From: Chamaesiphon sp. | Lineage (GTDB): Bacteria > Cyanobacteriota > Cyanobacteriia > Cyanobacteriales > Chamaesiphonaceae | Assembly: GCA_965246715.1 (NCBI GenBank) | Contig: CBDFFH010000034.1 | Coordinates: forward strand, 1 to 64,000 | DNA: 64,000 nucleotides | Reading direction: 5' to 3' | Part shown: in pieces, positions 6,796-11,177 of the stretch | Position numbering within the stretch: the stretch's first letter is position 1 | Layout of the letters: every line of letters starts with the position of its first letter | Translations under genes and position numbers: made by a program | The notes under the pieces: generated by a model | What the model was told of the DNA's origin: nothing | Database searches by the model: none | Seen by the model: only the letters and a program-made list of their open reading frames with translations

Positions 6796-7485
6796 ATGAT
6801 AGACACACCGATCGATCTCCCCGTCAATGTTGCGCTGTCCACACCGATTCTGCTATTAGTCCTAGTCGCATTAGAAGCAGTACTATCCGCCGATAATGCG
6901 ATTGCGCTAGCATCAATTTCGCAAGGATTGGTAGATGAAAATCTTCGGCCGAAAGCACTAAATATTGGCTTGATTTTTGCTTATGTCCTGCGAATGACAT
7001 TGATCGTTGCCGCAACTTGGGTAGTCCGCTACTGGCAATTTCAGGTGCTAGGCGCTGTTTATTTATTATGGTTGGTGTTTAAGTACTTTACCGCAGCAAA
7101 GGATGAAGATGGCGAAAAACAACGCCCTCAATATACGTCTTTGTGGCAAGTGATTCCGATTATTGCCTTTACAGATTTGGCATTTTCACTAGATAGTGTA
7201 GCTACCGCGATCGCCGTATCGACTGACACTTGGTTGGTAATTTCTGGAGCGACAATTGGCATTATTCTACTGCGCTTTATGGCAGATTTATTCATTCGCT
7301 GGTTGGGCGAATACACGCATCTAGAAGATGCTGGTTATATTGCAGTGGGTTTGGTCGGAGTTAAATTATTAGTCCGCGCGATCTATCCCGATCTAGAGAT
7401 TCCAGAACAAGTTACGATCGCATTGGTGGCTATTATCTTTACTTGGGGATTTTCACAACGTAAGGAAGTAGTTGAAAAGGAGTAA
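6796..7485 (+). CDS. TerC family integral membrane protein
   Basis: LEAVLSADNA and DLAFSLDSV motifs. Confidence 0.9.
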   Translation: MIDTPIDLPVNVALSTPILLLVLVALEAVLSADNAIALASISQGLVDENLRPKALNIGLIFAYVLRMTLIVAATWVVRYWQFQVLGAVYLLWLVFKYFTAAKDEDGEKQRPQYTSLWQVIPIIAFTDLAFSLDSVATAIAVSTDTWLVISGATIGIILLRFMADLFIRWLGEYTHLEDAGYIAVGLVGVKLLVRAIYPDLEIPEQVTIALVAIIFTWGFSQRKEVVEKE

Positions 7486-7535
7486 ATAACCTAAGCGATT
7501 AGCAAGCGCTCCTCTAAGAACCCCTTTGAGATCTT

Positions 7536-7586
7536 CTGTCTTGTCGGTTTTTTATTCGGAGGTTCCCTCCGAATAAAACCGCCGCT
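7536..7586. repeat. About 50-bp CT-flanked hairpin mini-element, copy 1
   Basis: CT-gtcttgtcggttttttattcggaggttccctccgaataaaaccgccg-CT; near-identical to 25458-25508. Confidence 0.75.
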
Positions 7587-7636
7587 AGTGGTGAAGATAG
7601 GTTTGTTCGATATCGAACAGTAAGATCGATGTTGGC

Positions 7637-7656
7637 TAGCATAAACCCACCCCTAC
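7637..7656. repeat. GTAG-type REP-like repeat, inverted partner of the copy interrupted by IS110
   Basis: tagcataaacccacccctac matches 19/20 the reverse complement of the reconstituted gtaggggcgggtttatgcta. Confidence 0.8.
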
Positions 7657-7716
7657 AGATCCATAAATTCGCATGTCATATATTTTACAGACAAACCGTA
7701 GATACTGTCTTGAATG

Positions 7717-8688
7717 TCAAGGGGTGGCGAGCGAATAATTAGGGTCAAAGGGCTGTTGAGACTTTAAAATGCCAAAAGCCAAATGGACTAATTTACGCAT
7801 GATGGCACCAATCGCCTGCATTTTAGCCTTGCCACGATCGAGTAATCGTTCGCTGAAAGTTTTGAGCAGAGGATTATGACGCATCGAGACTACCGCAGGC
7901 ATATAAAGAGCTTTGCGGAGTCGAGAATTACCAGTACAAGACAACCGAGTTTTGCCATGAACGCTGGTGCCACTAGAGCGCTCAGATGGAGTTAAACCCG
8001 CATGGGCAGCTAATTGACGAGCATTCTGGTAATCTTCGATCCGACCGATTTCTGCCAACAAGACAGCCGCAGTCTGTGCGCCAATTCCAGGAATTGAGAC
8101 CAACAGATCTCGCTGTTGTTTTAACTGTGGATGTTTGTCGAAATGGTCGCTAATTAATTGTTTAATTAGGGCTTGCTGTTCCTGGAGATAGGTCAGATGA
8201 GATTGAGTGAGTTCAGCTACTTTGGTGGTGGCTGTTTCCAAGCGATTGTGTTCGGCTGTGACCATTTCCTGAAGAGAATCTAATCGCCGGACCAGGGCTT
8301 GTAGTTCTTTGATTTCAGGGGCTGTTGGTTTCCACAGTTCTGGTTTAATTGCTGCACAAAAACGGGCAATCAATGCTGCATCAACTGAATCAGTTTTCGT
8401 CCGTAATAGTTCGCCCTTGGCAAACCCTTGAATTCGGGCTGGATTGACGACACTAACGGCAAAGCTGGCTGAGTAGAGGAATTCGGCTAAAGCGTCTCCA
8501 TAGATGCTGGTCGCTTCCAGACAGGCGTGCATTTGGTCGATCCCTTTTTGTTTGAGCCACTGCTGCAAACTCTCAAACCCTTGCAGATCGTTGGTGAATT
8601 TTTTGGATTTTGTTCTCGTCTCTCCCATGATTAGTACTACATGAAAGTCTTTTTTGCTGATGTCTATCCCTAAAAAATTAACTGTCAT
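7717..8688 (-). CDS. IS110-family DEDD recombinase/transposase
   Basis: GIDISK, CLEATS, KTDSVDA (DEDD), SIPGIG, catalytic Ser in SSGTS. Confidence 0.96.
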   Translation of the reverse strand: MTVNFLGIDISKKDFHVVLIMGETRTKSKKFTNDLQGFESLQQWLKQKGIDQMHACLEATSIYGDALAEFLYSASFAVSVVNPARIQGFAKGELLRTKTDSVDAALIARFCAAIKPELWKPTAPEIKELQALVRRLDSLQEMVTAEHNRLETATTKVAELTQSHLTYLQEQQALIKQLISDHFDKHPQLKQQRDLLVSIPGIGAQTAAVLLAEIGRIEDYQNARQLAAHAGLTPSERSSGTSVHGKTRLSCTGNSRLRKALYMPAVVSMRHNPLLKTFSERLLDRGKAKMQAIGAIMRKLVHLAFGILKSQQPFDPNYSLATP

Positions 8689-8719
8689 TAACTGCTTACT
8701 CCACTCCTAACTATGCTCA

Positions 8720-8895
8720 AAGAACTTGACAGACTGTTTAACTAACCTTGTGATTGCAGGCTTTTCGGTAAATCGATTGCCTAAGATACTGTCCAGCTTT
8801 AGGTGTGTCTGTCATCAGTTGTGGGAGCTTATCTACGCAGCAGACTAACAATGTTGTCTAAGGGGCGGGCCAGCTTCACCGATTACTGATGTCCT
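8720..8895 (-). ncRNA. Bridge RNA core (target- and donor-binding loops); the 5' end probably extends toward ~9045
   Basis: Guides CCCGCCCCT (8861-8869), CGTAG (8833-8837), ACAGTATCT (8784-8792) and ACAAG (8747-8751) match target and donor in the expected order, within paired stems. Confidence 0.88.
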
Positions 8896-9054
8896 CACTC
8901 TCACTTTCTCGCATCTGGAGATCGCGCTCTGAAACTGTTATGGTTTCTTTACGCCGATCGATTTATTCCTCTGACTCACTTGGTTTGTGTCGATCTCTTT
9001 GAACTACGTTCGTTCTAAGCATTGTCTATATCGATCGATTACCTACCTCTCTTT

Positions 9055-9060
9055 AAGATA
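9055..9060 (-). promoter_or_regulatory. -10 box TATCTT of the circle-junction promoter (-35 TTGACA at 7715-7720)
   Basis: After circularisation the junction reads TTGACA-17 nt-TATCTT. Confidence 0.8.
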
Positions 9061-9296
9061 CAAGGGGCGGGTTTATGCTATAAATTTCCGCCTAGCACTA
9101 TCAAATCCCAACAAACCCGCCCATCCTCACTAATAATCTGTCGAAGCTTGCGCGCCGCTGAAGCGGCGGTCGATTCCTTCTAAAAAGATCTCAAATGGGT
9201 TTTATAACGTTAGCCTCGATTTGCGGGATAAAATGCCTTGGAAATAGAGGGTTTAGTCCTAAAATAAATCATCCTTAAATTCAGCAACCCCTTTAT

Positions 9297-11177
9297 TTAC
9301 TGTTGCTTCCCGCATTCAGGGCAGAACTTATGACTGACTGTGTGAATGGCTCCACAATTCCCACAATGAGTGGTGGCGGAGCTGCTAGCTGCTGGACGTT
9401 TGGGTTTGGCTAGCCCCATCATTTCCGCATTAGATTTACCACCAGGTACCATCGGATAACAATTTTCGTCGCGCTTGACTTCGGCATTGAGTAACACCGG
9501 GCCATCGTGGGCTAACATTGCTGCGATCGCATCGGGTAATTCTTCACGACTGTTGATGGTTATCCCCTTGATGCCATATGCCTGCGCTAACAGCATAAAA
9601 TCGGGCATGGAAGGTGCCATTTCCGAGGAAGAGTAGTTTTCCTTATAAAAGGCTTCTTGCCACTGTCTGACCATTCCTTGCCAGCCGTTATTGATCACGA
9701 CGATTTTGACATTCAGGTGGTACTGCTTCAGGGTACCGAGTTCTTGCAGATTCATCTGGAAACTGGCATCGCCGCTAATACAGATGACTCGTTCGTTGGG
9801 TAATGCCATTTGTACGCCCATCGCCGCTGGAACGCCAAACCCCATCGTCCCCAGTCCAGCACTCGAAATCCAGTGCCGAGGGAGGTTATTAAGGAATTGT
9901 GCCGACCACATTTGATGTTGACCGACATCGGTGGTGTAATAAGCATCAGGCGCTTGACGGCGACACTCAACGATGACTTCTTGCGGTGCGAGCAATCCTG
10001 CATAGCTGGGAGCAACCAGCGGATTGTCACTGCGCCAACCTTCGATCGTGTCTAGCCAAGGTCTAGTTTGGTCGTCTTTACCACCCAAGCCTAATTCCTG
10101 TACCCTTTGCAGGAGCTGGATTAGCACCTGTTTGACATCCCCCACGATCGGGACATCTGGCGTGCGATTTTTGCCGACTTCAGCGGGGTCGATATCAATG
10201 TGGATGACTTTGGCATCAGCCGCAAATTCATCTAATTTTCCGGTTACACGATCGTCGAATCTCGCGCCGACAGCGATCAACAGATCGCAATCGGTGACCG
10301 CCCAGTTTGCATAAGCAGTCCCGTGCATCCCTAACATTCCAACCGATAGCGGATGCAGTTCGTTAAAGGCACCTTTACCCATGAGGGTAGTAGTAACGGG
10401 GATTTGGAATAGTTCGGCTAATTGTAGGACTTCTTCATGTGCGCTCGCCGAAATCGCCCCACCGCCGACGTAAAGTAACGGCTGCCGACTCTTGGCAATT
10501 AATTGAACTGCTTGATTGATTTGGCGAGGATTGCCACGTACTGTCGGTTTGTAACCTGGTAACTTAACACTGCCAGGAGCGACGGGGGTATAATCGCACA
10601 GTTTTGCCCCGATATCTCTGGGTACGTCGATCAATACTGGCCCAGGACGACCGGAAGCGGCGATGTAGAAGGCTTCAGCGACGATGCGTGACATGTCGGC
10701 TGGATCGCGGACGACATAAGAATGTTTGACAATCGGTAGGGTGATCCCATAGATATCGGTTTCCTGAAACGCATCGGTGCCGATGTTATAACTGGGGACT
10801 TGTCCGGTAACGATTACCATCGGAATCGAGTCCATTTGAGCGGTGGCGATACCCGTGACGAGGTTTGTGGCTCCAGGCCCAGAAGTAGCAAAACACACGC
10901 CGACTCGACCCGTAGCGCGCGCGTAGCCATCGGCTGCATGTGCGGCACCTTGCTCGTGACGCACGAGGATATGCTTGATTTTACCAGCGGCTTCAAAGCG
11001 GTAAATCTCATCATAGATCGGTAAAATCGCTCCACCTGGATACCCGAAAATATGGTGGACACCGTGACGGTGCAAACTATCTAAGAGTGCGTATGCGCCT
11101 GTCTGTTGTTGAGCGACAGTGCTGACCATGGGTAATGGTTGAGTAGTTGCTACTTCAAGAACGCGTTGAAAGACCAC
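9297..11177 (-). CDS. ilvB: Acetolactate synthase large subunit with C-terminal zinc ribbon (start may be 11129)
   Basis: [32 protein letters not shown] ThDP motif; CGNCG..FCPECG tail. Confidence 0.95.

Follow-up and report, generated by a model that had tools for sequence, protein, structure and literature searches.

An IS621-type IS110 element with a predicted bridge RNA at the foot of a long REP in Chamaesiphon

The element, its recombinase and its ends

The window analysed here is a 64,000-nt stretch of Chamaesiphon sp. DNA (GenBank contig CBDFFH010000034.1, positions 1 to 64,000 of the forward strand). It carries, at 7700–9064 on the minus strand, an IS621-type IS110 element, hereafter element A, which measures 1361 bp between its two CT cores; both cores are included in these coordinates. 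Its neighbours are convergent genes, one for a TerC-family protein (6796–7485) and one for a thiamine-pyrophosphate enzyme (9297–11177). The recombinase gene (7717–8688, minus) encodes 323 residues with the domains PF01548 and PF02371 (94.2 and 101.8 bits). The protein passes the NCBIfam model NF033542 (243.9 bits, cut-off 140) and matches the solved structures of IS621 (8wt6, E 2e-75) and ISCro4 (9t56, E 1e-74), to whose proteins residues 3–317 align free of gaps. In the alignment D9, E58, D100, D103 and S239 fall on D11, E60, D102, D105 and S241 of IS621, residues reported to be essential, since their mutation abolishes recombination (PMC11208158). Judged by this alignment, the DEDD motif and the catalytic serine of the recombinase are intact. 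The nearest named relatives come from cyanobacterial assemblies, at 83–92% protein identity; the IS110 recombinases of E. coli are more distant, at about 47% identity.

Taken on the minus strand throughout, the right end contains the right CT core (7700–7701; read from the sequence and present in all five copies of the element), the left donor arm ACAGTAT (7702–7708), and AAG (7709–7711), one arm of a 3-bp sub-terminal inverted repeat whose other arm, CTT, lies at 9055–9057. The left end contains a long 5′ leader (8892–9054) with a small hairpin at 8931–8947, and reaches through the right donor arm TGTAT (9058–9062, within 9055–9062) to the left CT core (9063–9064), against which the left target arm CCCGCCC abuts (9065–9071). 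The left end is 374 nt long and the right end extends 15 nt past the stop codon; all five copies have a CT core at both junctions, with no long terminal repeats or target duplication. A long left end, a short right end and a short sub-terminal inverted repeat set the IS110 (IS621-type) group apart from the IS1111 group (PMC11208160), and element A, with its AAG/CTT repeat, has all three. Among relatives the sub-terminal repeat matches over its full 3 bp in 20 of 37, and the matches total 92 as against 76.7 in shuffles, none of 5000 of which scored as high. The donor, ACAGTAT-CT-TGTAT, had been given in the original prediction as that of IS621, and it is identical to the donor ACAGTATCTTGTAT that the supplement to PMC11208160 shows for IS621.

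When joined, the ends read TTGACA-17-TATCTT, a sigma70-like predicted promoter across the circle junction. Its −35 box (TTGACA, 7715–7720) overlaps the stop codon and would be paired with the −10 box (TATCTT, 9055–9060) only in the circle. The spacer of this predicted promoter is 17 nt in 24 and 18 nt in 10 of 37 relatives (34/37 together). A promoter scan of the linear region returned 4 sites against 2.6 ± 1.9 expected, with nothing ahead of the left end except a weak 9/12 site at 9104–9075. The end-to-end joint of a circle is not listed in the contigs of four public runs over 7400–9400, and contigs drop rare forms. Among the 24 sequencing runs listed, none was an RNA run with the sequence, a result that has no bearing on expression.

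The target repeat and the copies in the genome

The repeat that element A splits is a long GTAG-type REP, cut at its GTAG foot (9064–9122, plus strand) and composed of an arm GGGCGGGTTT, a loop of about 38 nt and a return arm AAACCCGCCC (9113–9122). A partner long REP, whose CCCACCC-CT-AC foot is empty and whose return arm has decayed, lies in inverted orientation at 7595–7656 (minus). The GTAG foot stands 5′ of the hairpin and the copies are dispersed and intergenic, as is characteristic of GTAG-type REPs; an 18-mer of the long REP finds 29 arms within 2 mismatches in the genome. Sites matching the 11-mer CCC[G/A]CCCCTAC number 18, of which 13 are empty (five CCCGCCCCTAC and eight CCCACCCCTAC) and five are filled. 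This copy number is below the figure of more than 100 used as a criterion for REPs, and many REP families have 20–100 units or fewer (PMC3733652). Counted against its reversed control in five related genomes, the 11-mer gave 67/15, 68/12, 149/8, 33/11 and 11/9; it is clearly enriched in four of the five and not in the fifth (11 versus 9).

That the target is a REP, as originally proposed, is supported by a RAYT-like gene (C34:104106-104642; L181:607-1143) that is flanked by inverted copies of the same repeat. The RAYT-like protein scores 77.1 bits against NF047646, just under the NCBIfam cut-off of 80, and its motifs NHLH, WQ and YIIYNP fit the subclass 2.4 signature given in PMC6006769. Long GTAG-type REPs associated with TnpA-REP/RAYT (PMC6006769, subclass 2.4; PMC3733652) share with the present repeat the 5′ GTAG foot, the long hairpin and the inverted pair flanking a RAYT-like gene, and differ from it in copy number, which is low here (13 empty 11-mers). 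A decayed A-type left end lies about 250 bp upstream of the RAYT-like gene, at C34:103856. Separately, a small palindromic repeat (TTATTCGGAGG..CCTCCGAATAA, window 7540–7587) adjoins the partner REP and recurs beside B-type REPs elsewhere in the genome.

Five copies of element A were found in the genome, all ending at identical bases. Four are intact and differ by 3–9 of 1361 nt; the fifth (L007) is interrupted by an IS66 element (C15:36975-38550), 1576 bp including an 8-bp duplication. The rebuilt targets read CCCGCCC-CT-ACGGT in three copies, CCCGCCC-CT-ACAGA in one and CCCACCC-CT-ACCCC in one, the last being one base off, which is a G-T wobble for the guide. The expected match between guide and insertion site was seen in all five copies within one mismatch, and in four exactly. 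All five occupy the same target, CCC[G/A]CCC-CT-AC, and none lies at an unrelated one. Of the 4 sites with a 12-nt guide match 3 are filled, and of the remaining 14 sites 2 (Fisher, one-sided, p 0.044), a test on small numbers that was chosen after seeing the data.

An empty paralogue at C2:199443 has the paired-REP layout with one CT, and in the four public runs contigs have their break precisely at 9063, beyond which they continue into empty REP spacers. The exact core-to-core empty allele of this site is not listed in the contigs of those runs (7400–9400), and among 27 genomes of the genus the closest (G474, 97%) has no clean empty site at the orthologous position. In G474 (contig C3, L196), and likewise in record 3 of run X1, window positions 7650–9167 are absent, that is, the element plus most of the REP pair; neither is a core-to-core loss. 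The element has probably been active recently.

The predicted bridge RNA and the choice of target

On re-reading the sequence, every guide and stem motif listed in the original prediction was found at its minus-strand position: the left target guide CCCGCCCCT (8861–8869), CGTAG (8833–8837), the left donor guide ACAGTATCT (8784–8792), the right donor guide ACAAG (8747–8751), and the stems CATCAGT (8885–8891)/ACTGATG (8813–8819) and TGACAGAC (8807–8814)/GTCTGTCA (8727–8734). The left target guide is also present as left flank plus core at 9063–9071, and the left donor guide as right end plus core at 7700–7708, both on the minus strand. The predicted target-binding loop (8813–8891, minus) is closed by the first of these stems and contains the left target guide, an inner hairpin at about 8842–8860, the right target guide TGCGTAG (8833–8839) and a handshake dinucleotide AT (8831–8832). 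The predicted donor-binding loop (8727–8814, minus) is closed by the second stem and contains the left donor guide, a hairpin (8779–8783/8757–8761), the right donor guide and a handshake GT (8745–8746). The two outer stems share 2 nt, so that both cannot be full length simultaneously. Against the rejoined ends the left donor guide is complementary at 9/9 positions and the right at 5/5; the distal two bases of the right donor guide read AA, not AT, at the IS621 register, a match of 1/2 unless the bulge is 1 nt.

When the left end (374 nt) was shuffled 2000 times with its dinucleotides preserved, the left target guide arose in no shuffle, the left donor guide in three and the ordered four-motif pattern in none. 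Folding, which had been suggested as a check, gave a divided answer: an IS621-like structure covaries in relatives, but the 221-nt region on its own is no more stable than its shuffles (z +0.61; 146 of 200 shuffles folded as well), so that the support for the fold is covariation and not energy. Over 18 relatives and 37 pairs, 84.7% of cells are paired and 19 of the 37 pairs show two-sided changes. None of 500 shuffles was as high and slid controls reached 27–42%; the tested structure was drawn from the window's own sequence, an advantage over the slid controls, and the alignment rows are related. The covariation is accordingly best read as support for the predicted fold and not as a probability. 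RNAalifold, unaided, recovered both inner hairpins as well as the closing stem of the target loop. With the guides in order and the two-loop stems covarying across 18 relatives, the proposed bridge-RNA layout stood up to this analysis. An Rfam search of 7500–9300 returned nothing up to E 1.

The leader (8892–9054) varies in length within the CCCGCCC-targeting clade, where it often has tandem repeats rich in CGATCG words (L012, L025–L027, L037, L139). The distance from junction to donor guide is 228–410 nt in 11 of 13 members of the CCCGCCC clade, as against 124–163 nt in 31 of 34 others. In L025 and L139, CTCTC replaces the right donor guide ACAAG; these two elements are possibly inactive or reliant on the RNA of another copy. 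The octamer GCGATCGC, which we take to be HIP1, was counted 5606 times on both strands, against about 130 expected; its abundance, together with the cyanobacterial relatives named above, points to a cyanobacterial host. Two further candidates were rejected, namely a 19-codon ORF in the leader, which is not kept in the 11 relatives examined, and a third bridge RNA at C10:6429, which is without the rest of the layout and was not returned by the motif scan.

Relatives were used to compare guides with targets. A set of 182 loci gave 149 distinct entries with a recombinase match, 114 of them with a findable left donor guide; 35 of the 114 were set aside for want of a recognisable left junction, and the remaining 79 reduced to 62 distinct bridge regions. 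The left flank was defined by the donor sequence alone and compared with the 7-mers in the guide zone. Its own left flank was matched at 6–7 of 7 positions in 46 of the 62 regions; non-cognate pairs (differing at 3 or more bases) matched this well in 42 of 3144. Counted once per distinct target, 28 of 44 match their own flank; these are 44 different targets under two main donors, and kin among the relatives are not independent. The other 16 of 62 match at 5 of 7 or fewer, and some of these are parser errors or interrupted copies (L003), while some may be off-target or trans insertions (L031). Many targets under conserved donors is the pattern described for 5,511 natural ncRNA-target pairs (PMC11208160).

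Single-base covariation is seen in both loops. In L012 (92% identical) guide and target are both CCCACCC, and the right guide TGTAG goes with CTACA; in the donor loop of L030, guide and donor both read ACAGCAT. The donor-loop handshake base is complementary to target position 7 in 35 of 40 cases; among those with a base other than C at this position, the count is 3 of 7. The right flank begins with AC in 33 of the 50 regions in which it is readable, and many relatives therefore aim at a GTAG foot.

Protein families, CT cores, donor and bridge-RNA layout together bear out the identification of element A as an IS621-type IS110 element. To this identification, together with bridge-RNA-guided recombination as the likely means by which the element enters the GTAG foot of the long REP, we give a probability of about 0.92. 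Going by the IS621 literature, the element would form a circle, and the joining of its ends would build the TTGACA-17-TATCTT promoter. The left end would then be transcribed into a two-loop RNA, which a recombinase tetramer would bind and which would pair through its target loop with CCCGCCC-CT-AC(G) and through its donor loop with ACAGTAT-CT-TGT. Handshake pairing would assist strand exchange at the CT cores, and the element would be inserted with no more than the core duplicated. Base pairing is likely what selects the target, and the REP would offer landing sites that are abundant and intergenic. The route of circle formation is unsettled in print: the recombinase-RNA complex has been described as excising inefficiently (PMC13626964), and the origin of the circle has been argued to be single-strand copy-out plus half-match reactions (bioRxiv 10.64898/2026.08.31.748434).

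The main rival to target choice by pairing is an added hairpin requirement, in which pairing is needed but is not enough and the recombinase also reads the REP hairpin, a dual match of sequence and structure. There is a precedent in ISPpu10 of Pseudomonas putida (bioRxiv 10.64898/2026.03.19.712850), an IS110 element that shares with element A the CT core, the junction promoter and a REP target and was shown to be gated by the target hairpin. The foot of a long REP is occupied by four of the five element A copies; the fifth, on C14, lies beside a different GC-rich hairpin repeat, and the sole perfect 11-mer outside any repeat (C22:147892) is empty. On the other hand, about 9 of the 13 empty 11-mers are themselves long-REP feet and most matching 11-mers are in repeats anyway, so that the comparison has no power, and the C14 copy is without the long REP, its hairpin being on the other side of the core. 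We regard a hairpin requirement as possible but doubtful, and favour choice of the REP foot by base pairing.

A second question concerns the history of the guide. Element A and IS621 of E. coli (PMC11208160, PMC11208158; PDB 8WT6) share the DEDD motif and serine, the CT core, the donor, a long left and short right end, a junction promoter, a two-loop RNA, a REP target, the right target guide TGCGTAG and the handshake dinucleotides AT and GT. They differ in the left target guide (ATCGGGCCT in IS621, against CCCGCCCCT), in the sub-terminal repeat (ATA/TAT in IS621, against AAG/CTT) and in the right donor guide (GCAAG in the wild-type IS621 RNA, against ACAAG). Element A also differs from IS621 in its 374-nt left end with the long variable leader and in its target, a long REP with a 38-nt loop. 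ISCro4 (IS622; bioRxiv 10.1101/2025.05.14.653916; PDB 9T56) belongs to the same family and has the same layout as element A (phmmer E 1.3e-74 over residues 3–317); it is active in human cells and shares 88% identity with IS621, whereas element A is far more diverged and known from sequence.

The original prediction spoke of a bridge RNA retargeted, or reprogrammed, to a cyanobacterial REP. The left guide does differ from that of IS621, but only at 4 of 9 bases, and the right guide and handshake (TGCGTAG-AT) are identical, so that the term overstates the change. Likewise the REP target held, but to call it cyanobacterial says too much: the same 11-mer is also the target of elements of about 52% identity on other branches (L058, L102, L115). 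Recent reprogramming of element A from an IS621-like ancestor to a cyanobacteria-specific REP would fit the combination of IS621's 14-nt donor with a different left guide, and sister elements at 58–66% identity do use other targets (L028, L030, L141). We consider it improbable in view of the distance from the E. coli recombinases noted above, the right guide equal to that of IS621, and the wide retention of the target: of 13 elements with at least 64% identity, 11 have CCCGCCC, or a variant one base away, as their guide, and the CCCGCCC target is common to a cyanobacterial clade down to about 65–75% protein identity. In a quick tree of 53 rows, CCCGCCC-type targets fall on at least four separate branches, with L058, L102 and L115 on three others than that of element A; because the backbone of this tree is unresolved, it gives no readable direction of guide change. 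Two natural targets containing CCCGCCCCTAC occur in the 2024 supplement (PMC11208160). Four strings specific to the clade, to element B or to the REP arm were not found in the searchable 2024 supplements, in which alignment gaps can hide matches.

The reading that the guide-like motifs are relics or chance and the protein alone picks the target draws on the non-significant single-sequence fold and is hardly credible beside the left-end shuffle test, the guide-target covariation over 44 distinct targets, the stem covariation and the presence in the same genome of a second element with a different guide matching its different targets.

Co-resident elements with a shared donor

This second element, B, is present in four full-length copies (L001–L004, at C15:206105-207373, C22:94051-95319, C43:135062-136550 and C47:100224-101492). 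Its protein is 56% identical to that of element A, and it has the same 14-nt donor, with TGGAT for TGTAT in two of the copies. Its guide is ATTGCCCCT and its sites read ATT[G/A]CCC-CT-AC, in a repeat of which 115 11-mers are empty; another three left ends of B type lie at B-like sites. None of the five A copies is at a B target, though B targets are about nine times more numerous, and none of seven B left ends is at an A target. Protein-RNA specificity, action in cis or small numbers could each account for this separation.

On C15 a B copy and an A copy are separated by about 130 bp. Several B-type loci are altered. In one B copy (L003) a 211-bp insert separates the target and donor loops (C43:136208-136418); it is a small mobile repeat, because identical copies occur on C54 and C20 and many weaker matches occur in the genome. 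L010 (C54:20140-20250) is a B derivative of about 110 bp with both ends, without gene or guides and with a right flank of +4 bases, and could be a non-autonomous passenger. Two B-like left ends, at C22:145013 and C41:88684, are 95% alike and retain the whole bridge-RNA region and only about 20 codons of the gene; both carry a short palindromic insert and lack a nearby right end.

A different situation is found in genome G089 (loci L031/L157 on C20, L042/L158 on C93 and L183 on C53). There L031, a B-type element with the guide GAAACCCCT, sits at ACCGCGA-CT-AC, which is the target of the co-resident L042; the two are 77% identical over 198 residues. The same genome has a 7-bp left-end scar at L031's own cognate repeat. 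Mobilisation in trans would fit L031, and so would a half-match insertion or a later rearrangement, because the right flank is unusual for that repeat; this is one case. The idea that co-resident elements with the same donor form a system of natural cross-talk, with A and B as an orthogonal pair and the G089 element as one moved by another's bridge RNA, is put forward tentatively, and we think it more apt to fail than to hold. In the literature searched we found no cyanobacterial bridge recombinase and no natural cross-mobilisation between two IS110 elements.

The label of programmable recombinase candidate appears fair for element A. Intact anatomy is no predictor of value as a tool, because in a published human-cell screen a junction could be detected for only 18 of 72 orthologues and activity could be measured for one. 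Element A is an additional IS621-type system, from a cyanobacterium, present in several copies and apparently active in the recent past; its enzyme is about 47% identical to those of E. coli. To judge from its ends and donor loop it recognises the IS621 donor, and it would therefore be directly testable with existing donor plasmids; it is a possible starting point for editing in cyanobacteria. The understanding of the mechanism is unchanged, natural guide variation with a conserved donor having already been the basis of the 2024 discovery. What is added is a same-donor pair in one genome, in which it can be asked whether protein-RNA specificity keeps the two elements apart. In dual-guide editing, cross-reactivity of bridge RNAs has been named as an obstacle (bioRxiv 10.64898/2026.04.29.721476). 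If the tentative reading is true, elements A and B would be a naturally orthogonal pair for dual-guide editing, and G089 would offer a natural case of one element moved by the bridge RNA of another.
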